A stretch of DNA of 32,000 nucleotides from assembly GCA_031316235.1 (NCBI GenBank), contig JALDRA010000001.1, forward strand, positions 1,800,001 through 1,832,000, written 5' to 3'. The notes below the pieces were generated by a model. It had not been told where the DNA came from. It searched no databases and was given only the letters and a program-made list of their open reading frames with translations. The position numbers were made by a program, and so were the translations under genes. The stretch is from Candidatus Scalindua sp. (lineage in GTDB: Bacteria > Planctomycetota > Brocadiia > Brocadiales > Scalinduaceae). Below are positions 11,784 to 27,835 of the stretch, piece by piece. Every line of letters starts with the position of its first letter. Position 1 is the first letter of the stretch.

Positions 11784-14717
11784 ATGAAAATGAACAGATT
11801 AACCAGCAAGCACAATAAATCAAAAACTTTCTTTCACATCTTTCCTCAATATTTCGTACTGTGTATTATTCTCTTTCTTTTTGTACCCCGCACCTATGCA
11901 GGCGATGCAAAATATATCATTCTCATGATTGCAGACGGCTGCGGAATTAAACACCACGAGGCTACGAATGCCTATACAGGTTCTACACCTGCTTATCAGT
12001 CGGGAAGCTCCTGGAAAAAGCACTGGATGTCAACCTATCCCAGCGGGGGAAGTTATGACGGCAACGCCGCCTGGTCAAATTTCGATTATGTAATACAAAA
12101 TGGTTCCACGACTGACAGCGCAGCAGCAGCTACAGCACTCTATACCGGTGTCAAGACTGCAAACAAGCGAATAAGTGTCTCCAGTGGAGGAATCCGCCTG
12201 TTCAACATTGGTGAGAAAGCGAAAGCAAATCAAATGGCTGTCGGTGCCATAAGTTCTGTACCGGTTTCACATGCAACACCCGGCGCCTGGATGTCCCATA
12301 ATAATGACCGTAGCAACGGCTACGCCATTGCTGATGAGAGTTTTTTCGAGAATCCGAATACAACCGGATCCGGCAGTCTCTACAATGGTGGTAAGGGACC
12401 AACCGCCCCGCGTTCTGATGTCATCATCGGGGATGGATTTAATACCTCATATGTCAATGCGGCTATTAGAAATTTACTGGCAAGTGAAAGTGGTCAACTG
12501 GGAAAGCACAAGCTTGTCACCTGGTCAGCAGGCCAGAATGGTAGCAATGCCTTAATGGCTGAAGCCAATAAATCAAGCGTCACCAGATTGGCAGGTCTGT
12601 TCAAACATGTCTATCACCAAGCAAATTTTTCCGGCTTTGACTCAAGAAATCCAACGCTTGCAATCAGCACCAATGCAGCCTTGACAGTCCTGAGTCGTAA
12701 TCCAAACGGTTTTGTACTGATGATTGAGGGGGGAGCCGTTGATTGGGCCGGCCATACCAACATCATGGATGACATGATAGGTGAGCAAAAAGATTTTGAC
12801 AACGCTGTTCAAGCGGTCATCAACTGGGTAACGAATTCAGGCAACGGCAGCAACTGGAATAATTCCCTTGTTATAGTAACCTCAGACCATGAATGTGGCC
12901 ATCTCACTGCAGGACTGAATCTATTCCCTGATGACGCAAATCCGATAACCAATGTAAACAACGCCACCCTGGCTAAGGAAAAGGTTTATACCAATATAGG
13001 CGGCAATCTTCGTGCAAGCTGGGAGGATTCAGATTCTGACAACTTTATAGACGCTGGGGAAACAGTTTACTGGGCGTGGCATTCCCGTGGACATTCAAAC
13101 AGCCTTGTACCTCTCTATGCCCGGGGTGTCGGTGCTTCGCAGTTTGCAGCATATGCAAATGGTTTTGACCCGACTGGCCGTACCTATCTGGACAATATTG
13201 ATGTTTTTACGGTAATGGATAATGCAATTGCCGCTGTGTCGCACTCAGAAGATCCGCCTGGAATAACCAGTCCGGCACCCGGCGCAACAATAACGACATC
13301 AACTGTTACCTTTCAATGGAGTGCCGGTACCGGAGTCAGCAGGTACTGGCTGGGTGTGGGGACAAGCTTCAACTCAGTAAAAACCTCACCATTTGGAAAC
13401 ATCTATAGTGCAGCAACCGGGACGAATACCACTCAACAGGTAACAGGAATACCCATAAACGGGAATCCGGTGTATGTACGATTATGGTGGAAAATCGGCG
13501 CGACATGGACTACTGCAGACTATACGTTCCAGACACAGGGAACCGGCAATCAAACGCCGATTGCGGTAAATGATTCAGCGGTGACGGCAAAGAATACGCT
13601 GGTAAATGTTAACGTGACCGCCAATGATACCGATCCAGACGGGACAATTGATCCTGCTACTGTAGTGGTAAGAAGTAATCCTGCCCATGGTACCGCTGTG
13701 GCCAGGGTAGACGGTACAGTGAATTACACGCCTCTCACCGGGTACACCGGCCAGGACACCTTTACCTATACGGTAAATGACACTCTGGGTGCAACCTCTA
13801 ACGTTGCAGCGGTGACGATAACTGTCAACTCTTCGGGAGGTACACCCGGCATGACGAGTCCGGCACCCGGCTCAACAATAACAACATCGACTGTTACCTT
13901 TCAATGGAGTGCCGGTTCCGGAGTCAGTAAATACTGGCTGGGTGTGGGGACAAGCTTTAACTCAGTAAAAACCTCTCCATTTGGAAACATCTATAGCGCT
14001 GCAACCGGGACGAATACCACTCAACAGGTAACGGGAATACCCATAAACGGGAATCCGGTGTATGTACGATTATGGTGGAAAATCGGCACGACATGGACTA
14101 CTGCAGACTATACATTCCAGACACAGGGAACCGGCAATCAGACGCCGATTGCGGTAAATGATTCAGCGGTGACGGCAAAGAATACGCTGGTAAATGTTAA
14201 CGTGACCGCTAATGATACCGATCCAGACGGGACAATTGATCCTGCCACTGTAGTGGTAAGAAGTAATCCTGCCCATGGTACCGCTGTGGCCAGGGCAGAC
14301 GGTACAGTGAATTACACGCCTGTCACCGGGTATACCGGCCAGGACACCTTTACCTATACGGTAAATGACACTCTGGGTGCAACCTCTAACGTTGCAGCGG
14401 TGACGATAACTGTCAACTCTTCGGGAGGTACACCCGGCATGACGAGTCCGGCACCCGGCGCAACAATAACGACATCAACTGTTACCTTTCAATGGAGTGC
14501 CGGTACCGGAGTCAGCAGGTACTGGCTGGGTGTGGGGACAAGCTTTAACTCAGTAAAAACCTCCCCATTTGGAAACATATTTGGTGCATCAACCGGGACA
14601 AGCACAACTCAACAGGTAACGGGAATACCCATAAACGGGAATCCGGTGTATGTACGATTATGGTGGAAAATCGGCAGTACATGGTTTACCGCAGACTACA
14701 CGTTCCAGACGCAGTGA
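11784..14717 (+). CDS. Secreted alkaline phosphatase (PhoA family) fused to a repetitive A-B-A-B-A C-terminal array
   Basis: 977 aa with a signal-like N-terminus (FVLCIILFLFVPRTYAG). PhoA-type motifs are ILMIADGCG, TDSAAAATALYTGVKT (Ser nucleophile context), GGAVDWAGH, TSDHECGHL and WHSRGHSNSLVPLYARG. The C-terminal 485 aa alternate an about-95-aa module A with an about-100-aa cadherin-like/VCBS-type module B (PIAVNDSAVT..VTANDTDPDGTID..VNYTP..GQDTFTYTVND). Confidence 0.85.
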   Translation: MKMNRLTSKHNKSKTFFHIFPQYFVLCIILFLFVPRTYAGDAKYIILMIADGCGIKHHEATNAYTGSTPAYQSGSSWKKHWMSTYPSGGSYDGNAAWSNFDYVIQNGSTTDSAAAATALYTGVKTANKRISVSSGGIRLFNIGEKAKANQMAVGAISSVPVSHATPGAWMSHNNDRSNGYAIADESFFENPNTTGSGSLYNGGKGPTAPRSDVIIGDGFNTSYVNAAIRNLLASESGQLGKHKLVTWSAGQNGSNALMAEANKSSVTRLAGLFKHVYHQANFSGFDSRNPTLAISTNAALTVLSRNPNGFVLMIEGGAVDWAGHTNIMDDMIGEQKDFDNAVQAVINWVTNSGNGSNWNNSLVIVTSDHECGHLTAGLNLFPDDANPITNVNNATLAKEKVYTNIGGNLRASWEDSDSDNFIDAGETVYWAWHSRGHSNSLVPLYARGVGASQFAAYANGFDPTGRTYLDNIDVFTVMDNAIAAVSHSEDPPGITSPAPGATITTSTVTFQWSAGTGVSRYWLGVGTSFNSVKTSPFGNIYSAATGTNTTQQVTGIPINGNPVYVRLWWKIGATWTTADYTFQTQGTGNQTPIAVNDSAVTAKNTLVNVNVTANDTDPDGTIDPATVVVRSNPAHGTAVARVDGTVNYTPLTGYTGQDTFTYTVNDTLGATSNVAAVTITVNSSGGTPGMTSPAPGSTITTSTVTFQWSAGSGVSKYWLGVGTSFNSVKTSPFGNIYSAATGTNTTQQVTGIPINGNPVYVRLWWKIGTTWTTADYTFQTQGTGNQTPIAVNDSAVTAKNTLVNVNVTANDTDPDGTIDPATVVVRSNPAHGTAVARADGTVNYTPVTGYTGQDTFTYTVNDTLGATSNVAAVTITVNSSGGTPGMTSPAPGATITTSTVTFQWSAGTGVSRYWLGVGTSFNSVKTSPFGNIFGASTGTSTTQQVTGIPINGNPVYVRLWWKIGSTWFTADYTFQTQ

Positions 14718-14729
14718 ACCGGCAATCAG
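13253..14729 (+). repeat. 588-bp tandem repeat, about 2.5 copies, inside and just beyond the phosphatase gene
   Basis: The anchor tccggcaccc recurs at 13271, 13859 and 14447, giving an exact 588-bp (196-codon) period. By eye the copies differ at only a few percent of positions. Homology continues 12 nt past the stop codon (accggcaatcag, 14718-14729). Confidence 0.95.
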
Positions 14730-15269
14730 GATCGGTGGGAGCAAATACCGATGTTCCCTATTGCACTCAATAAAATTATCACCCATATTTTTTCGCCTGT
14801 CTTTAAGATGGGCTTAATATATCAGATCTCTTGCCTTCTTTCATTTCTTTTGGGGAACGATAGGGTTTGTGCAACAGGCGTTAAGATCGTATCATTAACA
14901 GACTCTCTTTGAATCCCAAAGCGCTTACCCCTTTTTATGTATAAAAAAACATTTTATACAGATCTTTCTAAATCCTATTATTTCAGATAATTATAATTCA
15001 CGTGCCTTACCCTGCCATAGTTTGTCATATTGACAGATCCAATATATATTTGTATAAGATTCAGTACAAACTGGATTTAGCTATCAGAATCCCACAAGGC
15101 CACGCTTCAGACTATCAGAGTACATGAAGTGCAGGGTCTTGAACGATATCTTAAAAGCAGCTTTACTACCGCAAACAGTTAAATGCTCTATTCCCGTGAC
15201 TGGATTTGTTTCACTTGGTTTTGGGACGTCTCCGGTCTGAAAACATATTCTTAAATGAGGGTCTTTCGA

Positions 15270-15600
15270 TTAATATGTACTACTGTAACCATCCACAAAA
15301 AAGCTTCCCTCTGACTCGTGATATTCGTCGGTAAAAGCGAAAAGTAAATTCATCGGGATAGTATTCCTGGCAGCTCCGTGACAGGTGCCCCCGCAAGCAT
15401 CTTTTGTGTAAAGAAGTGACGCTGTGAACACGTGGCAAGAAAGAGGAGAGGCAGACTCTTTACGTTTTCTCATAACGGTGGCTTCATGACGATAACCTTG
15501 CAAGCACAACTGGGACATTTAAAAAGAGTCTTGCACCTGGCCATGCCCTGGTGCCCCCACAGCGAGGGCAGTAAAAACTCTCGGTCCATCATATGTGAAA
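15270..15600 (-). pseudogene. Degenerate zinc-ribbon transposase-like remnant (possibly IS1595-like N-terminus)
   Basis: The minus strand carries FYCPRCGGTRAW in one frame and LFKCPSCACKV in another frame about 10 codons later. Together these are the two halves of a CxxC..CxxC ribbon split by a frameshift. The 82-aa track ORF (15270-15518) follows. There is no intact ORF and no detectable DDE region. Confidence 0.25.
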
Positions 15601-15764
15601 AAGGTAATTACGGCATTGTCCCTCTGCAGAGAACTGTTTCTCAAAGGCTATCTGGGGGACGGGGATATTTTCCCATAGCTCATATATATATGTATTACAT
15701 GCAGGCCGGAGGCCGGTCAAGTGAACAGGCCTTATAATAAATTTGAATAAATAGGGAGAAAAAA

Positions 15765-16160
15765 ATGAAAGCAAAATTAACACGACTCTTAATGATTGCA
15801 GGAATTCTTCTCTTAATGTTTGGATTATATTCGACACATAAACAAGCCCGGGCCGCCAGCCCGATCAAGCTGACCAACAGCCTGATCAGATGGGGAGGAT
15901 TCAACGACTATCGGATCAGCCCGGACAGCAGCCGGGTTGTCTACCGGGTAGACCATGATACGGAAGATGTCTATGAGCTCTACAGTGTACCGCTGGATGA
16001 CAGTCCACAGATTATACATCCAGCACCGGGGACATATTTCATTAAAATCAGCTACTCTGGCCTTCATAACCAATATGAACCGTACGAACTATCGGGGGAC
16101 CTGGCTAGGTGGAGTTGCGGCCCCCGGGATAACGAGTCCGGCACCATATTCGAAATTTGA
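15765..16160 (+). CDS. Signal-peptide-bearing N-terminal fragment of a split secreted protein
   Basis: agggaga lies 8 nt upstream of the ATG. The signal peptide reads MKAKLTRLLMIAGILLLMFGLYSTHKQARA. A PD40/TolB-like strand motif follows (YRISPDSSRVVYRVDHDTEDVYELYSVPLD). The last 20 or so codons, after the G5 run at 16094-16098, look out of frame. Confidence 0.55.
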   Translation: MKAKLTRLLMIAGILLLMFGLYSTHKQARAASPIKLTNSLIRWGGFNDYRISPDSSRVVYRVDHDTEDVYELYSVPLDDSPQIIHPAPGTYFIKISYSGLHNQYEPYELSGDLARWSCGPRDNESGTIFEI

Positions 16161-17035: not shown

Positions 17036-18253
17036 GTGTCACGTCAAGCTAGAATTGTCGTATATAATAGATTATAATATCTTCATAATTAAATTTTTTT
17101 CGGGAGATTTAGATTATGAAGAAATACATAGTAACTCTTGATTGCGATGAACGTAACAGGCTTGTTGCTTTAACGTCTAAAGGGATGCATAGATCCCAAA
17201 GATACTCAATGCATTACTATTATTAGCTTGCGACCAGGGTGAGTATCAGGGCAAACGTTCGACCAACGTTGAAATTGCCCGTGTTCTTAAAATAAGCATG
17301 AAGAAAATTGACCGGGTAAAGAAAAGATTTGTTGAAGAAGGTTTTGAAGTTGCGCTTAATGGACGCAAAGGCAATCGAGTATATGAAAAGAAGACAGATG
17401 GTGACTTTGAAGCCCACCTGGTAGCGTTAAGTTGTAGCGAGCCGCCAGAAGGTTTTGCAAGATGGTCTCTGCGATTATTAGCAGACAAGGTAGTAGAACT
17501 TGAATATACTGACAAAATTTCCCACGAAACAATACGCCGTATATTAAAAAAACGAAATTAAGCCCTGGCAACGAAAAGGTTGGGTAATACCGCCAAAAGA
17601 AAACGGCAGTTTTGTCGCTAACATGGAAATGGTGCTGGATGTATACAAACGTCCATATGACGCTAAGTATCCAGTAATATGTATGGACGAGTCACCAAAG
17701 CAACTTATATCAGAGACAAAGATGCCAATTTCTGCTTCACCAGGGCAACCGGCTAAGTATGACTATGAATATAAGCGTTGTGGAGTGTGTAATATTTTTC
17801 TGGCCTTTGAACCATTGGCCGGGAAACGTATAGTAAAAATAACAGAAAGAAGAACTAAACAAGATTGGTCCTATTTTCTGGAAGACGTTGTTAATACATA
17901 TGGTCATGCGAACAAAATAACATTAGTAATGGACAACTTGAATACTCATGATGCTGGATCGTTGTATGAAACGTTTGTGCCGGATAAAGCAAAGGAAATT
18001 TTAGATAAATTTGAGTTTGTCTACACCCCAAAGCATGGTAGCTGGTTAAATATGGCAGAAATCGAGTTGAATGTACTTGCTGGACAGTGTTTAAACAGGC
18101 GGATTGATAATATTACAAAGATAAAAAAGAAGTACAGTCATGGCAGAAATTTAGAAACAATAAGAAATCAAAGGCTAACTGGCAGTTTACTACGATTGAT
18201 GCCAGGATAAGATTATCTAAACTTTACCCGACACTTGATGATTGACGTGACAC
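17036..18253 (+). mobile_element. IS630-family insertion sequence, 1218 bp, with TA target-site duplication in a CTAG target
   Basis: The terminal inverted repeats are gtgtcacgtcaa (17036-17047) and ttgacgtgacac (18242-18253). They are flanked by TA (17034-17035) and TA (18254-18255), in the contexts cTAg on the left and cTAg on the right. Size and transposase sequence are typical of IS630/Tc1-mariner elements. Confidence 0.9.
17116..18245 (+). pseudogene. IS630-family DDE transposase, interrupted by three frame changes
   Basis: The pieces read as follows:
- MKKYIVTLDCDERNRLVALTSKGMHRSQ, then a -1 shift;
- KILNALLLLACDQGEY..KKIDRVKKRFVEEGFEVAL..ETIRRILKK, then a +1 shift;
- NEIKPWQRKGWVIPPKENGSFVANMEMVLDVY..VICMDE..LVMDNLNTH..PKHGSWLNMAEIE, then a -1 shift;
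- EVQSWQKFRNNKKSKANWQFTTIDARIRLSKLYPTLDD.
The breaks map to A3 (17198-17200), A7 (17546-17552) and A6 (18123-18128). Confidence 0.85.
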
Positions 18254-18608: not shown

Positions 18609-19775
18609 ATGATTATGGAAACTATTCGAACCATTTTAACGATGTTTATGCTTTTATTGTCTTTAACGATTTCACCCTGCTCGGTTCAGGCCGATCAACC
18701 TGAACCAATTGCGCAATGTGATCTAGAAGGAGATAGGAAGATACCTACTATTAAGTGTGGAGAACACACCGAAGGGTGCAGGCTTGAAAAAAGCAATGAT
18801 TTAGACCAATTCTACTTTAATGGTATTGCGGGGCAAACAAAAATAAAGATTAAGATTTCTGATATTGAAAAAGATGGTGATGATAACTTAGCTTTACTGT
18901 TGCAGATTTGGGATCCAGATGGTGTTAAAATCGTAGACTATTATAATCATGGTAATATTTTGAAAGAATTCACACTTCTTAAGACGGGAAAATATGTTAT
19001 GGGCATCAGCGATGTGCTCCATGGCATTGGTGGGTATACGCTTCAATTTGATTGTCTCCCTCCCGGTGATGATGCGCCATGCCTTACATGGGGAATTACT
19101 GAGAGTGATACTCTTAACCAGATAACAGATCATGACTTTTTCACTTTTCAGGGCGCGCCATCTAATGAGATCACAATTGTAGTCAATAAGACAACAAATC
19201 CTGATATCGAATTAAAATTAGAGGTTTGGGATCCAGATGGTGATCTAATTGTTAACCAATGGTCGAATGGCAGTATTATAAAAGATTTAGAACTTGAGAA
19301 ACTAGGAACCTATGGTATAGGCATCAGCGATTATCAACTTGATGAACTTGGTGGATATACCGTACTGATAGAGTGTCCTTTCGGTGACTGTCCTCCATGC
19401 GAAGTTGAACCGTTGGTCAAGGTAGTGATTGATCAGTTGTGGAGCGCTACTTTTGGTGGTCAATTTTTGGGTGAATTTAGTCCAGGTGACGGCTTAATCA
19501 TTAACGACATGTGCACGGTAATAGATGAAAATAACCTTGAGTATAGTTTGTGGCAATTCTACAATTTGGTCGATCATAATAAGAAAATATTCCCCCTGGG
19601 CAGGCAGCGGACGAGAAACAGCCCGGGACACCACTATTTTGTGTTCAACGATGCAACCATCCCAGCTGATGCTACCCCCGGCAAGGGAAAAATACAAGTC
19701 AATGTACGATTAAAGAAAAGTGGTGAGCTCATTGGCAAAGGAAACTCCAGGGCAATTCCCATTTATATAAAATAA
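18609..19775 (+). CDS. Secreted protein with two tandem PPC (pre-peptidase C-terminal)-like domains and an unknown C-terminal domain
   Basis: 388 aa. ggggga lies upstream of the ATG, and the signal peptide is ILTMFMLLLSLTISPCSVQA. Two homologous segments are present: DLDQFYFNG..LLLQIWDPDGVKIVD..GKYVMGISD..GGYTLQFDC and DHDFFTFQG..LKLEVWDPDGDLIVN..GTYGIGISD..GGYTVLIEC. A 17-nt identical core, tttgggatccagatggtg, occurs in both. Confidence 0.7.
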   Translation: MIMETIRTILTMFMLLLSLTISPCSVQADQPEPIAQCDLEGDRKIPTIKCGEHTEGCRLEKSNDLDQFYFNGIAGQTKIKIKISDIEKDGDDNLALLLQIWDPDGVKIVDYYNHGNILKEFTLLKTGKYVMGISDVLHGIGGYTLQFDCLPPGDDAPCLTWGITESDTLNQITDHDFFTFQGAPSNEITIVVNKTTNPDIELKLEVWDPDGDLIVNQWSNGSIIKDLELEKLGTYGIGISDYQLDELGGYTVLIECPFGDCPPCEVEPLVKVVIDQLWSATFGGQFLGEFSPGDGLIINDMCTVIDENNLEYSLWQFYNLVDHNKKIFPLGRQRTRNSPGHHYFVFNDATIPADATPGKGKIQVNVRLKKSGELIGKGNSRAIPIYIK

Positions 19776-20299: not shown

Positions 20300-20373
20300 T
20301 GGCTGGGGAACAAGGATTCGAACCTAGACTAATTGAGTCAGAGTCAATCGTGCTACCATTACACTATTCCCCA
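20300..20373 (-). tRNA. tRNA-Gln (anticodon CUG), CCA encoded
   Basis: The minus strand reads TGGGGAA TA GTGT AATGGTA GCAC G ATTGA CTCTGAC TCAAT TAGT CTAGG TTCGAAT CCTTG TTCCCCA G CCA. This gives a cloverleaf with U1-A72, G73 and anticodon CTG. There is one U-U mismatch in the T-stem. Confidence 0.9.
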
Positions 20374-20434
20374 GTAATAGTATAGTGACAGTATTTTAAT
20401 TCATGTAAATATAATATCAATAGAAAAATTCTCT

Positions 20435-21205
20435 TCATGTAGCGGCGATTGAGGTAGCGGGAGGCTTCCTGCCTATATGGATGGTAACAATGCCAAATGT
20501 TCTTTGAAAAAATTTTACCTCTATCAAGCCACACTCTTCCATCTTCCTCTTCAACTCTTCCTTATCCGGAAATGCCAGGACCGAATCGGGTAAATATGAA
20601 TATGCATCAAACTTACTTTGAGATATTATCTTCCCAATTACCGGCAAAATCTTCCTGAAGTAGAAAAAATATATATACCTGAAAATAAAGTTGGTTGGTT
20701 GTGAAAATTCAAGGATAATGACCTTTCCGTCCGGCACAACTACCCTTGCCATCTCTTTAATCCCTGCCATTAAGTCTGTAACGTTTCTTATCCCAAACCC
20801 GACAGTAGATATTTCAAAGGCATTATCATGGAATGGTAGTTTCAGCGTATCCGCCTCAATAAGCGTTACTTTATCTTCTAAATGCCTCTTTTTAATCTTC
20901 GGTTTTCCGTAGCGCAGCATATCGTGACAGTAATCGCTGCCGACAACAAGCCCGTTTCCATTTAATTGCTGGGAAAATGAGATTGCAAGGTCGCCTGTTC
21001 CGGTACAGACATCAAGTATTTTCATATCTGACCTGATACCGCTCAGTGTTACGGCAGATTTCCTCCAGGACTTATCTCGATTAAGACTCAGAAAAGAGTT
21101 GAGAAAATCATACACTCTCACAATGGAAGAAAACATACTTTTTATATTTTCTGCTCTCTCTTTCAGCACTTCCTGCTCTGTTGGCGGCTCATCACCAGTA
21201 TTCAT
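20435..21205 (-). CDS. ubiE: Demethylmenaquinone / ubiquinone-precursor C-methyltransferase (UbiE/MenG family)
   Basis: Motifs are FSSIVRVYDFLNSFLSLNRDKSWRK, the SAM-binding motif ILDVCTGTGDLA, FGIRNVTD and GKVIILEFSQP. The track ORF starts at 21322, inside the upstream gene. The ATG at 21205 (MNTGDEPP..) is preferred, 4 nt after the upstream stop. Confidence 0.85.
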   Translation of the reverse strand: MNTGDEPPTEQEVLKERAENIKSMFSSIVRVYDFLNSFLSLNRDKSWRKSAVTLSGIRSDMKILDVCTGTGDLAISFSQQLNGNGLVVGSDYCHDMLRYGKPKIKKRHLEDKVTLIEADTLKLPFHDNAFEISTVGFGIRNVTDLMAGIKEMARVVVPDGKVIILEFSQPTNFIFRYIYFFYFRKILPVIGKIISQSKFDAYSYLPDSVLAFPDKEELKRKMEECGLIEVKFFQRTFGIVTIHIGRKPPATSIAAT

Positions 21206-21209
21206 TGTT

Positions 21210-22277
21210 TCAATCAAATTTAAATCCCTCTTTACGGAAATCAAGCAGGCAGGCATCCACCACCCTGGTATCATAAAGTATTCCTTTATTCTGCACGATT
21301 TCATCCAGTGCCTGGTCCACACCGAGGGCAGGTCGATAGGGCCGATGCAGCGTCATTGCCTCGACGACATCTGCCACACACAAAATTTTCGATTCCAGGA
21401 GTATCTCATCCCCCTTTAGCCCTAAGGGGTATCCAGAACCATCTATCTTTTCATGATGCTGGTATACAATTTTTGCAATTGGCCACTTGAACTCAATTTT
21501 CTTCAATATATCATAACCGACTTGCGGGTGTGTCTTAATCATGCTGAGTTCGATTTCTGATAAAGGCCCGGACTTATTGAGAATCTCAGCCGGTATCTGG
21601 ATTTTTCCGACATCATGAATTATCCCAGCCATTTGAATTCCTTCAATCTGATCCTTTGACAGATTCATTTCTTTTGCAATGACGCAGGCGAGATCTGCCA
21701 CTCTCAACTGGTGACCAGCGGTATATGGATCCCTTATTTCCACCGTCAAGGCCATGGCCTGTATCGTTCCCTCCATATTTGTTCTCAGCTTGTCAGAACT
21801 CTGCTGGAGTTCTTTATAGAGATCTTCACTGAATCTGACATTTCTGAGGATATTTCCATATGATTCAACAGCACTTGCCACAGTATCAAGCAGTTGTTCC
21901 GGATCACTCCCTTTTATGACATATGCATGCGGTTTAAATTGCCTCCTTATGTCTCTCCTGTCTTCTCTTTTTGTCGCAACACCCGTATGGAAAATTATGG
22001 GTACGTAAGGATTTTTCGCCTTGATTTTTTCAAACACTTCAAGACCTGTAATATCAGGCATGTCAATATCTAAAACGACAGCGTGAATGCCTTTGTCTAA
22101 TTTATCAATTGCCTCCTTGCCCGTTGGACACAGTTTCACCAGATAGCCCTCTTCTTCAAGTAAAACCTCCGTAGTCTTGAGAACGGAGCCTTCATCATCA
22201 ACTACCATAACTGTCGGTTTTTCTCTTTCAAAGTTGCTAAGGTTATCAACAACTTTTATACCAGCATACTTGTTCAC
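21210..22277 (-). CDS. Response regulator with HD-GYP output domain (putative c-di-GMP phosphodiesterase)
   Basis: 355 aa. The receiver domain reads TVMVVDDEGS..AVVLDIDMPDITGLEVF..IIFHTG. The HD-GYP domain has an intact HD (IIHDVGKIQIP) and an intact HHEKIDGSGYPLGL. Confidence 0.9.
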   Translation of the reverse strand: MNKYAGIKVVDNLSNFEREKPTVMVVDDEGSVLKTTEVLLEEEGYLVKLCPTGKEAIDKLDKGIHAVVLDIDMPDITGLEVFEKIKAKNPYVPIIFHTGVATKREDRRDIRRQFKPHAYVIKGSDPEQLLDTVASAVESYGNILRNVRFSEDLYKELQQSSDKLRTNMEGTIQAMALTVEIRDPYTAGHQLRVADLACVIAKEMNLSKDQIEGIQMAGIIHDVGKIQIPAEILNKSGPLSEIELSMIKTHPQVGYDILKKIEFKWPIAKIVYQHHEKIDGSGYPLGLKGDEILLESKILCVADVVEAMTLHRPYRPALGVDQALDEIVQNKGILYDTRVVDACLLDFRKEGFKFD

Positions 22278-22663
22278 TTTTCCTTCCCCTCTTTCCCGAT
22301 CGCCCTATCTACCAGCTGTAACAATTCAGCTCCATCAAAAGGTTTCGATATACATGCAAATGGACCCTGGGAAACCACTTTGTCTGAACATTGATCAGAA
22401 TCGAGTCCCGTCATCATTATTACGTTTGTATCAGGATTTATCTTTTTTACCTCTCTGGATGTTTTCCAGCCATCGATCCCCGGCATTCTTACATCTATAA
22501 AGGCCACATTAAAATTTAACTTTCTCGCCGCATTTATCCCATGATAACCATCCTCTGCCACTACAACATGGTAGCCGGCATACTCCAGTAACCCGGCGAG
22601 AGCCATCCTCATCCCCGGTGCATCATCAATAACGAGTATGTTGATTTTCTGCTGCATCCTCAT
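22274..22663 (-). CDS. Stand-alone CheY-like response regulator receiver
   Basis: 129 aa: INILVIDDAPGMR..VAFIDVRMPGIDGW..VIMMTG..KPF. ATGA overlaps occur at both ends (22660-22663 and 22274-22277). Confidence 0.85.
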   Translation of the reverse strand: MRMQQKINILVIDDAPGMRMALAGLLEYAGYHVVVAEDGYHGINAARKLNFNVAFIDVRMPGIDGWKTSREVKKINPDTNVIMMTGLDSDQCSDKVVSQGPFACISKPFDGAELLQLVDRAIGKEGKEK

Positions 22664-24294
22664 CTCTCCAACGGCAACTTTATCATAATACTGGTACCTT
22701 CTCCTACCTTACTCTTCACATCTATTGTCCCTTCGTGTTTCTGAATAATCCAATGACAAACTGCCAAACCCATTCCTACACCATCAGGTTTTGTTGTAAA
22801 CAATGGATCAAAAATCTTCTTGGCCTCTTTTTCAGAAATGCCACATCCAGAATCTGCAAATTCAATTTCTATGTAATTTTTACTTTTCCTGGCGCTTATT
22901 GTCAGGGTACCGCCATCTGCCATGGCCTGGCACGCATTTTCAATGAGATTTATGAAAATTTGCCCCACCTGGTTTGCGTCTATCTCAACCAGAGGCAGGT
23001 TGGGTTCAAAGTTTCTGGACAGTACTATTTTTTCTGTCATCTTCGCTCTCAACAATGCTTCTTCAATGATTTCGGTAATATCAAATGGAATCTTTTTTAG
23101 TTTGGCAAAACTGGCAAACCCCAAAAGGTCATTAATAATCTTGTTGCTTCTATCTATTTCGTCATCCATAATATCAAGGAACTGCAGGACCCGTTTATCA
23201 ACACCCGGCATGTCATTGTCTGCGAATTTCCTTTTTAGAAAGAAGACAGCGTTCTTTATCGCCCCAAGGGGATTTCTGAGTTCATGGCTGATACCAGAAG
23301 CTAGTGTACCGACAGCTGCTAATTTCTCTGTCCGTATTAAACGCTCTTGCGTCTCATTCAGCTGCTCGTTTGTCTGAACCAGCTCTTTATTGATTGTGGA
23401 TAACTCCCGGTTTAAATCCCGGAGTGTAGTCATAACATTTTCCTTGTCACCCATAAGTTTTCTTAAACTTTTTGTCATTTGATTAAAACGGGAAGCAAGC
23501 ATTCCTATTTCGTCTCCTGACCGTATTTCGACCGTCTGATCCAAATCACCGGATGCAACCCGGTCCGTCAGTTTGACCAGATCTTCAACAGGTTTTACAA
23601 CGCTTCTTGCTATGAAATATGAAACACTGATACCTACGAGTACAATAATAAAACCTAGCGGGATACTGCTCGTCCATAAAACGGCATTCATTTTTTTATT
23701 AATTCTTTTTGGGGACAGACCAATCTGAACAACACCGAGCAGTTTGTTTTCTTCTTCAGCATAGTCTTCATCCACACTAAAAATCTGTGCCGCAAATTTT
23801 TCTTCAGATATTGTACGCTTTTCATGAACAGGAGCAACGAAATTGTAAAATTGTTCACCTTTATCTGTAGAGAATATATCAAAAACGGGTTCCGATATAT
23901 TCTCCGGATTGAAAGACACGGGCATGCTGGCTACGTTTGTATCTATCCAGGATTCTTTTTCTTCCAGCAGGATGTTATCCGGAACAAGTAAGACACGCCA
24001 AAAGGCCAACTCTTTATCCCTGTCAAGTGCTCGCAACCTGTTGATGGGATCTTCAAAAAATGCCTTTTGAGCTACGCTCATGGAATCTTTTACTTCTCCG
24101 TCCTGCGCAAGCTGAACTATTAACGAATATCCCCGTTTCTTCAATTCATCTTCAAGCTGTTTCTTTATTTGTGTAGAAAAAAACCAGCAGCTGGCTATAC
24201 CAATAAAGACAATCAGCAGACTGGTAAATACGATGAACTTAATTCTAAGGCTAAATCTATTCATAATTTGCACTTTCTTATCCAAAAAAATCAT
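22660..24294 (-). CDS. Sensor histidine kinase with periplasmic domain, HAMP, HisKA and HATPase_c
   Basis: 544 aa. TM1 is FIVFTSLLIVFIGIASCWFF, followed by an extracytoplasmic region of about 170 aa, then TM2 (SSIPLGFIIVLVGISVSYFIA). The HAMP domain reads PVEDLVKLTDRVASGDLD..EIGMLASRFNQM, followed by a coiled coil. The H-box is SGISHELRNPL, the N-box is IFINLIENACQA, and the G-boxes are DSGCGI and GVGMGLAV. Confidence 0.9.
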   Translation of the reverse strand: MIFLDKKVQIMNRFSLRIKFIVFTSLLIVFIGIASCWFFSTQIKKQLEDELKKRGYSLIVQLAQDGEVKDSMSVAQKAFFEDPINRLRALDRDKELAFWRVLLVPDNILLEEKESWIDTNVASMPVSFNPENISEPVFDIFSTDKGEQFYNFVAPVHEKRTISEEKFAAQIFSVDEDYAEEENKLLGVVQIGLSPKRINKKMNAVLWTSSIPLGFIIVLVGISVSYFIARSVVKPVEDLVKLTDRVASGDLDQTVEIRSGDEIGMLASRFNQMTKSLRKLMGDKENVMTTLRDLNRELSTINKELVQTNEQLNETQERLIRTEKLAAVGTLASGISHELRNPLGAIKNAVFFLKRKFADNDMPGVDKRVLQFLDIMDDEIDRSNKIINDLLGFASFAKLKKIPFDITEIIEEALLRAKMTEKIVLSRNFEPNLPLVEIDANQVGQIFINLIENACQAMADGGTLTISARKSKNYIEIEFADSGCGISEKEAKKIFDPLFTTKPDGVGMGLAVCHWIIQKHEGTIDVKSKVGEGTSIMIKLPLER

Positions 24295-25238
24295 GGATAA
24301 ACAATAACATGCGGAATCCCTCGAATTGTATCTAAATTCAACCCGAGTTTCTTAGCCGTGAGAGAATTTACAACCAGCTTAAAGGTATCAGGATAAATGA
24401 TACCCAATGAATTCGTCGAAGGTATCCTTAATATTTTGTTAGCTATTTGAGCGGCCTGCATTCCAATCTCAACATAATCTGAAAATACCGCCATCAAGGC
24501 CCCCGCTTTTACAAATACATCATTGGTGCAGAGGAGAGGGATATTATTTTCGAGCGTCCTGGTCTTGATCAGATTAAAAGAGTCTTTCGTTACTACAGTT
24601 CTATCGGGCAGTATCCACAGAGCATCAATTTTTCCACTTATGTCATCAAGTGCCTTATCAATCATGTCAGAGGATTTAATCTCATATTTAACTAAATGTA
24701 TCCCGATTCTTTCCATTTGCAGCCCAGCATCCTCAATGATGTTACCCGTGTTGGAAGGATCATAGATGACACCTATATTCCTCAGAGTCTCCACAATGGT
24801 TTGATACCCCATTACCTGATTTTCTATAGGAACCTCATTAGAAATGCCAGTTACATTTTGTTTTACCAACTGGTATCTCTCATGATTAATTACCATACAG
24901 AAAAGTATTGGAATATCTTCAATCTCTTCCTTTGCTATGGTAGTTGCCAATACACCAATTGTTAAAATGATGTCGGGCTTTTCTTTCTTAATCTTACGAA
25001 CCATTTTGCGACCAACCTTCATTTTACCGTTTAAATTGTAAATGGAACGAATGGTAATGTTGTTGTTGAGACACTCTCTTTTAAAACCAGCGACAACGTT
25101 ATTATAAGCAGAAAGGTTCTGGCTCTTTATGATTATTGCTGTATCTTTTGAAAATGCGTACTTTGCACCTGGAAAGAGGACAAAAAAGACGATGAGGAAA
25201 ACATACAATGGATGGGTTTTCTTAATCATGAAAAGCAA
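24291..25238 (-). CDS. Orphan periplasmic substrate-binding protein, ABC_sub_bind (PF04392 / COG2984)-like
   Basis: 315 aa with signal peptide LYVFLIVFFVLFPGAKYAFS. The layout matches the COG2984 family: PDIILTIGVLATTIAKEEIEDIPILFCMV, NVTGISNEVP, LRNIGVIYDP, IDALWILPDRTV, NNIPLLC..VKAGALMA, and LVVNSLTAKKLGL. No permease or ATPase gene is present in the window. Confidence 0.72.
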   Translation of the reverse strand: MLFMIKKTHPLYVFLIVFFVLFPGAKYAFSKDTAIIIKSQNLSAYNNVVAGFKRECLNNNITIRSIYNLNGKMKVGRKMVRKIKKEKPDIILTIGVLATTIAKEEIEDIPILFCMVINHERYQLVKQNVTGISNEVPIENQVMGYQTIVETLRNIGVIYDPSNTGNIIEDAGLQMERIGIHLVKYEIKSSDMIDKALDDISGKIDALWILPDRTVVTKDSFNLIKTRTLENNIPLLCTNDVFVKAGALMAVFSDYVEIGMQAAQIANKILRIPSTNSLGIIYPDTFKLVVNSLTAKKLGLNLDTIRGIPHVIVYP

Positions 25239-27365
25239 TTAAAAACTATAGCGTAATTCAACGTTAAAGGACCTCTCTGCCTGGGGATAATCGGTAGGAA
25301 CGGTGTTTTTGGGAGAGGGGTCATCATACCCTTTATCAAAAAGATTAAATACAGAACCACGTATCTCAAAGTTATCTATGAAATTTGTCCCGATAAATGT
25401 CATATCCACCACCGTATGTGATGGCAGGTCTTCCCTGGCATCACCATTTTCTCTTGGTCTTGGTCCGCTTATAAAGGTGTGTAAATTTGCATTTACGTAC
25501 TTCCACAACCCCAGGTTAACACCAAAATTTGCCTTGTGTATCGGAACATCAGGAATCCGATTTCTGCTCCTTGTCTCCTCCGTATCCTGAAAGGTATAAT
25601 TAGCATAGGCATAGCTGTTATTACCGAAATCTGCCTTTAACTCAACCTCGACACCCTTGACCCTTACACCTCCCGAGTTAACATATTGCTGAGGGCTTCC
25701 ATCGCCAGCAACTACAATCCTGTCCCGTATTCGATTATAAAAATAATTTATGTTTCCCCTTACATGCTTTGAAAAGTTGTAGCCCAGGCCAACCTCAAAG
25801 GTATTTATCTTTTCCGGGTCAAGACCGGGATTACCTATTACAACGGTGTTATTTGTAAGAAACAACTCGTTAAAGTTGGGCGCCCGGAAGGCTGTGGCAA
25901 AGAGAAGTTTCAGGTTGGCATTTTCTAAAAATCTCCAGATGAACCCGATTCGCGGATTGGTAGTACCGCCAAATCTCGGAAACTGATCATGCCTGACCCC
26001 GACTGTCAGATCAATATCATCTGTAATATTCCACTCATCCTGTAGATAGAACGACCAAATCTGCCTTGTAACCCTCCTGGTAAATGGAAGGGAGTGGGTA
26101 AAATCGGTCATTGAGGAGAGCCCTACCGGAGGTGTTGTATTGGGGATAAAATTAAACGAGGATTTTATATCGCCCTGGTGTATCCATTCGTACTGGAAGC
26201 CAAACGTGAGCTCATTTCCATCGAAAATATTGTAATTGATCTGGTTCTCGAATCCGATGGTCCTCTCTTTCAGTCTTAATCGCCCCTCCAAACCATCAGG
26301 ATATACAATATCGAACGGTCCAAGGGGGGGAGGGACTGTTACGGTAAAACCATCTGGACGCCTCTCAAAAAGGGGGTCAAAATTGTACTGATCATAATAG
26401 AGTCTAGGTATTATCGTTATTTTTTCTCCAAGCGGAAACTGATACAGAATTTCGCCAAAGAGATAGGTATCTTTCAACTCCGTTTCATCATTGAGGGCGT
26501 CACCGATTCCTATATACCCTTCTCTCCTTTTCTTCATATATTTACCCTTAATCTCCAGATTATTATACCCAATCTTCAGATTAAGATCTGTTTTTTCTTT
26601 TCTGTTCTGAGACCTTCCAGGGCTTTTTGAGAACGAGTTCGGGAATAGAACGTCTTGATCTACTGTTTCACTGAAACCTTCAGTATCAAAGAAATCAAAA
26701 AATCCGGAAATCTTCAGAGCACCAATTTGCTTTCCAAACAGCATGTTATAATTCTGCGTGTCAAAGCTCCCTCCGCTCAAAGTCCATTGAAACCCATCAA
26801 TATCTTCCGTGTCTTTTGTTATAACATTCACAACTGCAAGAAATGCATTCTGGCCATGCAATGCAGACCCAGGCCCTCTGATAATCTCTATCCTTTTTGC
26901 ATTTTCAACAACCAGATCACTGAAATTATAAGATCCCCCACCTGATAACGCATCATTGACCGAATGTCCGTCTATCATCAATTTTACCTTTTCTGAATTT
27001 ATGGTAAGGAGACCTCTGGCAGAAATTTCCTTTTCCCCTGTTCTGTCCATAGATATATCAAAGCCTGGAACGGTCCTTAACACATCAGCCAATGATCTGA
27101 ACCCCATCTGTTTTATCTGTTTGGCTGTAACAACACTCATTATTGCCGGTGACTTCAAGACTGTTTGAGGTCTTTTCAGGGCGCTTATAACTATCTCTTC
27201 CTCAGTAAAGATGGCGAAAAGATCGGCAAACTCTCCTTCTAAAACCTGGGCATATGAAGAAGCGGAAGTGAATGAAAACAGTACCAGAAACAGAAAAAAA
27301 TTGAGTTTTAGGGGATTTTTAACTATAGTACAGATCTTTTCTTCCTCCTTTACCCGATCAGGCAA
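25239..27365 (-). CDS. TonB-dependent outer-membrane receptor
   Basis: 708 aa. The plug region reads VISALKRPQTVLKSPAIMSVVTAKQIKQMGFRSLADVLRTVPGF and IEIIRGPGSALHGQNAF. A long beta-barrel ends in NVELRYSF with a terminal aromatic residue. The start is uncertain: the track uses TTG at 27365, but a strong aaggagg lies inside the ORF (codons 5-7) with no canonical start codon right after it. Confidence 0.9.
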   Translation of the reverse strand: MPDRVKEEEKICTIVKNPLKLNFFLFLVLFSFTSASSYAQVLEGEFADLFAIFTEEEIVISALKRPQTVLKSPAIMSVVTAKQIKQMGFRSLADVLRTVPGFDISMDRTGEKEISARGLLTINSEKVKLMIDGHSVNDALSGGGSYNFSDLVVENAKRIEIIRGPGSALHGQNAFLAVVNVITKDTEDIDGFQWTLSGGSFDTQNYNMLFGKQIGALKISGFFDFFDTEGFSETVDQDVLFPNSFSKSPGRSQNRKEKTDLNLKIGYNNLEIKGKYMKKRREGYIGIGDALNDETELKDTYLFGEILYQFPLGEKITIIPRLYYDQYNFDPLFERRPDGFTVTVPPPLGPFDIVYPDGLEGRLRLKERTIGFENQINYNIFDGNELTFGFQYEWIHQGDIKSSFNFIPNTTPPVGLSSMTDFTHSLPFTRRVTRQIWSFYLQDEWNITDDIDLTVGVRHDQFPRFGGTTNPRIGFIWRFLENANLKLLFATAFRAPNFNELFLTNNTVVIGNPGLDPEKINTFEVGLGYNFSKHVRGNINYFYNRIRDRIVVAGDGSPQQYVNSGGVRVKGVEVELKADFGNNSYAYANYTFQDTEETRSRNRIPDVPIHKANFGVNLGLWKYVNANLHTFISGPRPRENGDAREDLPSHTVVDMTFIGTNFIDNFEIRGSVFNLFDKGYDDPSPKNTVPTDYPQAERSFNVELRYSF

Positions 27366-27774
27366 AATGAGACAATGAGATAGTAGTATACGGTCCTATG
27401 TGAACCTTAATTGGTTTCTTCGCACAAAGACAAGGATTTATTGCAATCTTTAAACTCTTTATGGTGGGTTTTTATTTGAGTCTTTAATGAATTTCCTGCT
27501 TCAAGAAATTTTTTGATACGTAAAATAAATACAAATTTGCAACCAGAATTATCTTCTTTTTGTTGTATCAGGGAAAACAGAGCAGGCTGAAGTAAAGAGA
27601 AAAAAACCATTTGTATACTTCCTCTTTCGACCGATTACTCCCTCAACAAATGAGATTGTCAAAAATTTATAATTATTTTTCCTGGGCAATGCTAAAGTGG
27701 GATGGAAACAAAACCGCATTATATACAGAATATTTTTGTACTGCAACTCTTAAAATAGGCTTGTCAAGCCAAAA

Positions 27775-27835
27775 TATACCTTCACCAAGATTTGATTTCC
27801 GGTTTTACCGGAAATCAAATCTTGGTGAAGGTATA
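27775..27835 (-). terminator. Perfect 29-bp stem / 3-nt loop hairpin (possible terminator of the FAD oxidase gene)
   Basis: tataccttcaccaagatttgatttccggt (27775-27803), ttt loop, accggaaatcaaatcttggtgaaggtata (27807-27835), with no mismatch. On the minus strand it is followed by tttt. It is flanked by two small hairpins, ggcttg-t-caagcc (27758-27770) and tcggat-ttt-atccga (27852-27866). Confidence 0.5.

Follow-up and report, generated by a model that had tools for sequence, protein, structure and literature searches.

The closest described relative of the system reported here comes from Cycloclasticus sp. P1, in which the consecutive genes pahS (TonB-dependent receptor, 687 amino acids (aa)), pahP (periplasmic binding protein, 318 aa) and pahK (kinase) belong to a pathway modelled as running from ligand to receptor, binding protein, kinase and response regulator, based on surface plasmon resonance, co-immunoprecipitation, two-hybrid and Förster resonance energy transfer data (Wang et al., iScience 2023, PMC10570129). 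The same order of receptor, binding protein and kinase genes, likewise without an ATP-binding cassette (ABC) transporter, was found in a block of six minus-strand genes of Candidatus Scalindua sp., a marine anaerobic ammonium-oxidizing (anammox) bacterium (GenBank assembly GCA_031316235.1, contig JALDRA010000001.1, positions 1,800,001 to 1,832,000; this whole 32-kb stretch is hereafter called the window). Comparative analyses suggest that the block encodes a trans-envelope sensing system lowering cyclic di-GMP (c-di-GMP), a reading to which we assign a probability of about 0.65. A preliminary description of the window, made from its letters alone, knew of no characterised system with this architecture; the Pah system, which has the same three-tier logic, is the one published precedent. 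The two differ in lineage and in ligand, which is a polycyclic aromatic hydrocarbon in Cycloclasticus. Moreover, PahR (GacA-like, 215 aa) is a DNA-binding protein whose gene lies elsewhere, whereas the Scalindua outputs are an adjacent receiver (REC) protein and a REC-HD-GYP regulator, and PahK (771 aa) was described without a periplasmic sensor domain, whereas the Scalindua kinase has a conserved one of ~172 aa.

LuxP-LuxQ, TorT-TorS, ChvE-VirA and CBP-ChiS are binding-protein-dependent sensor kinases in which, as proposed for Scalindua, a periplasmic binding protein encoded beside a membrane kinase is the ligand-binding half; the review covering them makes no mention of PF04392, TonB or the outer membrane (PMC8050422). 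LuxQ holds LuxP by periplasmic PAS/Cache-like domains, and the LuxQ domain is among the fold matches of the Scalindua model. However, LuxP, TorT, ChvE and CBP belong to other binding-protein families, and all four systems lack a dedicated receptor at the outer membrane. FecA-FecR-FecI resembles the Scalindua block in that a TonB-dependent outer-membrane protein heads the pathway, but the latter has no STN domain, anti-sigma factor or extracytoplasmic function (ECF) sigma factor, and its signal would presumably be carried by the ligand and a soluble binding protein. On the output side, Xanthomonas RpfC/RpfG exemplifies two-component control of c-di-GMP by a REC-HD-GYP regulator. Like the Scalindua output, RpfG joins a receiver to an HD-GYP domain with complete motifs and is encoded next to its presumed kinase, but the input of RpfC/RpfG is a diffusible fatty-acid signal at a hybrid kinase, whereas receptor and binding protein would form that of Scalindua. 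Canonical PF04392 importers (TrpXYZ-type; KEGG K01989/K05832/K05833) share fold and family with the Scalindua binding protein, but in their operons permease and ATPase genes follow the binding-protein gene, and the Scalindua block has neither. In the searchable literature, no paper was found that combines PF04392 with TonB-dependent receptors, and no system like this one was found in the anammox literature.

The genes of the block, and the sensory domain of its kinase, are the following:

25239..27365, minus strand: TonB-dependent outer-membrane receptor, 708 aa (Pfam Plug and TonB_dep_Rec_b-barrel)
24291..25229, minus strand: secreted PF04392 (ABC_sub_bind) solute-binding protein, 312 aa (Pfam; alternative TTG start at 25238)
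22660..24294, minus strand: sensor histidine kinase, 544 aa, with a first transmembrane segment (TM1), periplasmic domain, second transmembrane segment (TM2), HAMP, HisKA and HATPase_c (Pfam, hydropathy and PDB kinase-core matches)
23665..24180, minus strand: periplasmic domain of the kinase, about residues 39-210, possibly a divergent single-Cache/PDC-like domain (profile comparison and a weak structure model)
22274..22663, minus strand: stand-alone CheY-like receiver, 129 aa (Pfam Response_reg, 87.3 bits)
21210..22277, minus strand: REC-HD-GYP response regulator, 355 aa, GTG start (Pfam HD_5, 135 bits; Response_reg, 68.6 bits)
20435..21205, minus strand: UbiE/MenG-family C-methyltransferase, 256 aa (Pfam Ubie_methyltran PF01209, 224 bits)

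All six genes named in the preliminary description are present as consecutive open reading frames (ORFs) in the ORF listing (25239-27365, 24291-25238, 22660-24294, 22274-22663, 21210-22277 and 20435-21322, the last holding an internal ATG at 21205), and an identical 8-kb assembly contig carries the same six. Their domain assignments held as well, each scoring far above the Pfam gathering score. The junctions, checked by base-by-base reading of the sequence, were mostly as described. The receptor stop (TAA, 25241-25239) does abut a possible TTG start at 25238, but ATG 25229, at which the deposited 312-aa Candidatus Scalindua protein (100% identical) begins, is the more probable start of the binding protein and leaves a 9-nt spacer after the receptor stop. 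ATGA overlaps occur at 24294-24291 and 22663-22660, but the third overlap, at 22277-22274, reads GTGA because the HD-GYP gene begins with GTG, behind the Shine-Dalgarno-like run GGGGAAGGA. The 4-nt spacer reported ahead of the methyltransferase ATG (21209-21206, start at 21205) is correct. Scans for internal signals returned 8 terminator-like sites inside the block compared to 8.6 in shuffled sequence, and 26 promoter-like sites compared to 25.2, frequencies no higher than in shuffled sequence, and the six genes are probably co-transcribed.

The binding protein matches PF04392 at 114.1 bits (cut-off 25.9), has 3lkv, 6hni and 3lft as PDB relatives, and shares ~23-28% identity with canonical members of the family; its score against the TrpX equivalog model (100.7 bits) is under the cut-off of 390. 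Its genomic context was surveyed in 80 loci from species-representative genomes, mainly of anammox bacteria, found with an alignment of the binding protein, and in 77 metagenome loci, found with an alignment of non-anammox relatives obtained from an exhaustive representative search. These loci, designated below by L-numbers, were annotated in phmmer and hmmsearch runs that used the window proteins and reference ABC components, giving 158 binding-protein instances. Plasmids of Pseudomonas and Salinivibrio, which carry canonical PF04392-permease-ATPase operons, supplied the reference permease and ATPase. With these references, tblastn detected no homologue of a cognate permease or ATPase anywhere in the window, and none of the 158 related instances showed a permease homologue in its locus, while similarity to ABC ATPases in the related loci was weak, generic and at least 4 kb away. 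The lack of partner components, which the preliminary description had stressed, was therefore borne out in the window and, for the permease, across the related loci. Among the closest representatives of the binding protein, P0169, P0177, P0232 and P0250 (~1,240-1,260 aa) each carry four tandem PF04392 domains. A profile of 50 diverse binding proteins retrieved the Scalindua orthologues once more. What looked like a binding-protein/sensor fusion in L140 was discarded as an artefact, the ORF caller having read an alternative frame of a high-GC contig.

In place of a transporter, the binding-protein gene is followed by a sensor gene. A sensor with the same periplasmic domain lies directly after it in all 27 Scalinduaceae orthologues, in 55 of 60 other genome loci (mostly Brocadiales) and in 33 of 46 other metagenome loci; by source, the pairing holds for 71/76 genome and 44/57 metagenome instances, whatever the cytoplasmic output. 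Together with the receptor, which was found in 27/27 Scalinduaceae loci, these counts indicate a conserved neighbourhood. The downstream sensors have two transmembrane segments ~160-190 residues apart, followed by HAMP. Their outputs vary, comprising plain histidine kinases, PAS/GAF-histidine kinases, hybrid histidine kinases, HAMP-GAF-HD-GYP and HAMP-PAS-GGDEF-EAL proteins and methyl-accepting chemotaxis proteins (MCPs), with the binding protein and the periplasmic domain constant throughout. The cognate regulators include REC, two-REC, three-REC, REC-HD-GYP, REC-adenylate/guanylate cyclase and REC-sigma54 activator proteins. Anammox genomes hold at least two to four such modules each among the 80 loci kept. 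In the non-anammox loci L089 (11286-13064) and L156 (3380-5080), the same periplasmic domain and HAMP are joined to an MCP signalling domain, and the binding protein and Cache-like input may therefore also feed chemotaxis in some non-anammox modules.

The paired proteins also diverge together. Distances between binding proteins correlated with those between periplasmic domains at r = 0.95 (n = 103 pairs), a value reached in none of 500 permutations, whereas either of them correlated with the HAMP region at r = 0.78; for binding protein and receptor, r = 0.96 was obtained over 42 triples. As the set holds many paralogues from the same genomes, this shows duplication and divergence of receptor, binding protein and sensor domain as one unit.

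In the window kinase, hydrophobic segments at residues 20-38 and 211-229 flank ~172 aa, in agreement with the periplasmic domain of about 170 aa first described. No Pfam or NCBIfam model passes for these 172 residues. Nevertheless, a profile of 71 anammox sensors matches the equivalent region of non-anammox sensors, and, upon iteration, the periplasmic-domain profile converges solely on sensors adjoining these binding proteins, among 1,801 ORFs. An independent profile built from non-anammox sensors only aligned to the anammox profile with an hhalign probability of 98.7% (E 4e-16, 163 columns). As judged from these profiles, the periplasmic domains of the binding-protein-linked sensors are one family, and two of its non-anammox representatives, L096 and L101, score above the Pfam cut-offs of sCache_3_2 and sCache_4. 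The domain of the window kinase is tentatively treated here as divergent single-Cache-like and is proposed as the docking site for the binding protein.

The signalling residues downstream of this domain are all in place. The kinase translation contains an intact H-box (SHELRNP), and the phosphorylation pockets are intact both in the stand-alone receiver (D13, D14, D57, T85, K107) and in the receiver of the fifth gene product (D27, D28, D70, T98, K122), which Pfam resolves into Response_reg and HD_5/HD. The translation of the latter carries IHDVGK (HD) and QHHEKIDGSGYP, with the HHExxDGxGYP motif present as HHEKIDGSGYP, so that the catalytic motifs are intact as originally read. With all of these sites in kinase, receivers and HD-GYP domain complete, the predicted output is regulated c-di-GMP hydrolysis, the REC-HD-GYP protein being the predicted phosphodiesterase. 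It is not a member of the NosR-family REC-HD-GYP model of NCBIfam (167 bits vs a cut-off of 400). Among the 15 Scalinduaceae loci with enough sequence for gene-content counts, 13 contain the REC-HD-GYP gene, and all 15 contain the receptor, binding protein, kinase and ubiE. Some relatives possess proteins with two or three tandem REC domains in place of the single 129-aa receiver, and Brocadia paralogues have REC-adenylate/guanylate cyclase or REC-PAS-sigma54 proteins instead of REC-HD-GYP (L003 12569-13306; L010 10029-11117 and 11129-12304; L048 12620-13762; L028 7447-9150).

At the outer membrane, the receptor scores 76.4 bits for Plug (cut-off 23.9) and 178.4 bits for TonB_dep_Rec_b-barrel (cut-off 27). 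At the sequence level, its translation shows a hydrophobic leader (signal peptide) ending SSYA/QV, a TonB-box-like EEIVISA ahead of the plug and a C-terminal end (...RYSF) with an aromatic Phe. No STN signalling extension was matched at E <= 0.01 (Pfam), the plug beginning at residue 70, straight after leader and TonB box, and no sigma or anti-sigma factor was found among the six cluster genes and the ten flanking ORFs scanned. Lacking STN, the receptor is not expected to signal mechanically in the manner of FecA. All specific NCBIfam receptor models fell far under their cut-offs. The receptor lies on the upstream side of the binding protein and ends within 2.5 kb of it in 27/27 Scalinduaceae, 17/50 other genome and 17/33 other metagenome loci; outside Scalinduaceae, ~40% of loci have an adjacent TonB-dependent receptor, and further loci have it downstream of the binding protein or divergently oriented. 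In several relatives, a B12-binding radical SAM gene adjoins the receptor gene or separates it from that of the binding protein (L002 8008-9420; L003 4363-7804; L013-L015), and genes for a UbiA-family prenyltransferase and a PHP-domain protein are found immediately upstream in L003, L083 and L021. The window ORF at 781-2262 was considered as a counterpart of this radical SAM gene but, despite initial clustering, proved merely a distant paralogue (56 bits).

Taken together, these features suggest the following course of events. An external ligand would cross the outer membrane via the TonB-dependent receptor and be captured by the periplasmic PF04392 protein, which would serve no ABC importer here. 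Once loaded, the binding protein would dock on the kinase at its divergent Cache-like periplasmic domain and alter kinase activity, and the HAMP histidine kinase would phosphorylate both the stand-alone receiver and the REC-HD-GYP regulator, resulting in changed c-di-GMP hydrolysis. The single receiver is probably a competing phosphate acceptor or a second branch. The core of this model, from receptor through binding protein and kinase to REC and REC-HD-GYP, was already outlined in the preliminary description and appears well supported by comparison, through the absence of a transporter, the pairing and the co-divergence.

Several points weigh against this reading. The evidence for the Scalindua locus is wholly comparative, and the likeness to the Pah system is at the level of architecture only, PahP and PahK having been compared by description, and PahP may fall outside PF04392. 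A permease could lie elsewhere in the 4.15-Mb genome, as the search covered the 32-kb window, and shared descent accounts for part of the co-divergence of adjacent genes. The receptor is also not obligatory for the module, being out of reach in about half of the non-Scalinduaceae cases. Taken alone, the periplasmic domain of the window kinase reaches sCache_4 at E 0.14, short of every Pfam Cache threshold, and its AlphaFold2 (AF2) model is of low confidence (mean predicted local distance difference test score, pLDDT, of 59; best TM-score 0.38). At this pLDDT, the model shows a helix at either end, the N-terminal one being long, and between them a sheet of five strands into which another helix is inserted, and its best PDB matches are the sensor domains of KinD, PctC, CitA, TlpA and LuxQ, at E 7e-4 or weaker and TM-score <= 0.38, in weak agreement with a Cache/PDC-like fold. 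Finally, Cache-like/PDC domains usually bind small ligands themselves, and the binding protein might thus not be the input of the sensor.

The last point leads to a different explanation, in which the kinase senses its ligand directly through the Cache-like domain, and receptor and binding protein form a co-regulated uptake or scavenging pair whose transporter is elsewhere or does not exist. Such direct sensing would suit Cache/PDC domains as classical ligand binders, and the ligand-binding domains of KinD, PctC and CitA are among the best fold matches of the model. It would also suit the binding-protein family, since every solved PF04392 protein serves a transporter and binds L-Trp, L-Tyr or L-Phe (PMC10443332) and canonical members do adjoin a permease and an ATPase. 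However, a permease was found in 0/158 loci, many of the sensors end in HD-GYP, GGDEF-EAL or MCP modules with no direct transcriptional control of uptake genes, and the correlation between binding protein and periplasmic domain (r = 0.95) is tighter than that of either one with the HAMP region (0.78). Direct sensing by the kinase is accordingly regarded as rather improbable, and presentation of the ligand by the binding protein is preferred.

Another explanation gives a role in the system to ubiE, together with larE in deeper relatives: the signal would control quinone methylation or the insertion of sulfur into a cofactor, or the ligand would be quinone- or prenyl-related. The window methyltransferase passes TIGR01934 (236.2 vs 158.35) and the UbiE equivalog NF001244 (234.4 vs 216), is just under NF001243, which covers MenG only (230.1 vs 235), and falls short of the MpqE model (242.7 vs 335). 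Hence it is not a generic class I methyltransferase, a possibility raised in the preliminary description. A second UbiE-like gene upstream in L005, L006 and L008 was rejected, being itself a generic class I methyltransferase with a partial PF01209 match. In 11 of the 15 Scalinduaceae loci, ubiE is directly preceded by larE, encoding an ATP-dependent sacrificial sulfur transferase (TIGR00268 equivalog match, 343 bits vs a cut-off of 150). In the deeper relative L003 the larE-ubiE pair (14534-16159) has its genes 45 nt apart, whereas the two overlap by 4 nt in eight relatives (L010, L012, L014, L097, L100, L102, L114 and L115).

The position of ubiE agrees with a function in the system, as it closes the block on the 3' side in 15/15 Scalinduaceae loci even though the genes farther on differ in at least six ways, and as it abuts the preceding gene in the window (4-nt spacer) or overlaps larE in the eight relatives just named (-4); the equivalog-level identity of larE and the presence of UbiA-family prenyltransferase and B12-radical-SAM genes upstream in some relatives point in the same direction. 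The conservation of ubiE as the end of the block nevertheless stops at the family, since the 8 kb downstream of the binding-protein gene held no same-strand ubiE homologue in any of the 128 non-Scalinduaceae instances, and ubiE is therefore not part of the general module. The clade of the window has lost larE and kept the rest, its ubiE lying 4 nt past the HD-GYP stop, and in several relatives gaps of 150-270 nt separate HD-GYP from larE-ubiE. The module also has no inner-membrane importer to carry a periplasmic ligand to a cytoplasmic methyltransferase. The gene scores as an ordinary UbiE/MenG, and the quinone of Scalindua is menaquinone-7 (PMC13253579), so that a housekeeping role would be enough. 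Support for the quinone-linked signalling once suggested for this locus ends at gene order, and a signalling function of ubiE seems unlikely; most likely it is the cell's housekeeping demethylmenaquinone methyltransferase riding at the 3' end of the operon.

The idea that the receptor is an ordinary nutrient transporter (for a corrinoid, haem or metal chelate) that merely neighbours the signalling pair would fit its best sub-threshold NCBIfam likeness (haem, B12 and siderophore receptors, at a generic level), the modules lacking an adjacent receptor and the B12-binding radical SAM gene often nearby, but is very unlikely, as receptor adjacency recurs across unrelated lineages in differing orientations, receptor and binding-protein distances track each other (r = 0.96, 42 pairs), the stop and start codons of the two genes abut or overlap in most orthologues, and an interaction of PahS with PahP was reported experimentally (PMC10570129).

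Three-tier sensors composed of receptor, binding protein and membrane sensor are common but barely studied, and a transporter-less PF04392 branch with a cognate Cache-like sensor domain, often with a dedicated TonB-dependent receptor, appears to be unrecognised in the searchable literature. In public records, proteins of this branch are labelled "ABC transporter substrate-binding protein". If the sensing model is true, their annotation would be corrected to sensor subunits (2,884 representative clusters at E <= 1e-10), their periplasmic partner domain, so far unannotated, would be defined, and the single published case of a receptor/binding protein/kinase system, in Cycloclasticus, would be extended to many phyla and to outputs beyond transcription. 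A still wider proposal, for now a speculative one that we doubt in its full extent, is that these modules represent a widespread trans-envelope type in which a dedicated receptor imports a molecule solely for sensing, a transporter-less PF04392 protein carries it, and a Cache-like domain is wired to any output; this type would have expanded in anammox bacteria to several paralogous modules in each genome and been welded to larE-ubiE in Scalinduaceae, tying an external cue to both c-di-GMP and quinone maturation. To our knowledge, anammox bacteria are not genetically manipulable, and little has been published on their signalling. The modules are candidates for the means by which they perceive external compounds and set c-di-GMP, the messenger by which other bacteria control aggregation. 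The conserved tail of ubiE and larE, a puzzling pair, is an oddity concrete enough to be tested.

A plasmid collection yielded mostly canonical ABC operons, which serve as controls, and one true module, on plasmid pSD of Geobacter anodireducens (L166; CP014964.1 5475-10221). Its genes, which overlap or nearly abut, encode a receptor, PF04392 protein, HAMP kinase and REC protein, all annotated as hypothetical. The annotated kinase has no TM1 and gave no match to the periplasmic-domain profile. As it belongs to a cultured organism and lies on a conjugative-type plasmid (MPF_F), the pSD module could serve as an experimental model.

The sequences bordering the Scalindua block, and other features of the window, are as follows:

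27782..27828, minus strand: perfect 20-bp hairpin with a T-rich tail (terminator scan and sequence reading)
27718..27746, minus strand: candidate sigma-70-type promoter, TTGCAG / 17-nt spacer / TATAAT (consensus match only)
20393-20420, minus strand: promoter-like site of tRNA-Gln(CTG), TTGATA / 16-nt spacer / TAAAAT
20300-20373, minus strand: tRNA-Gln(CTG), 62 nt past the ubiE stop
18609-19775, plus strand: 388-aa ORF with no Pfam or NCBIfam match, after the DDE_3 fragment
17623-18210, plus strand: DDE_3 transposase fragment, 195 aa
2998-3071, minus strand: second tRNA-Gln(TTG)

The hairpin (27828-27782) is an inverted repeat of 20 bp with a 7-nt loop, its stem being much longer than in typical intrinsic terminators. 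It probably terminates the FAD_binding_4 gene upstream and bounds the block on the 5' side. A leader of ~400 nt separates it from the receptor gene and contains the candidate promoter, which was read by eye and is under the -35 threshold of the promoter scan. No riboswitch (e.g. cobalamin) was found in this leader, where Rfam returned hairpin noise only, at gathering as well as lax thresholds; at the latter, the hairpin draws spurious microRNA-precursor matches. On the other side, the DDE_3 fragment and the 388-aa ORF just past the tRNA that ends the block suggest a rearrangement point. Elsewhere in the window, a 977-aa protein (11784-14717, plus strand) has an alkaline phosphatase domain together with bacterial Ig and cadherin-like repeats.

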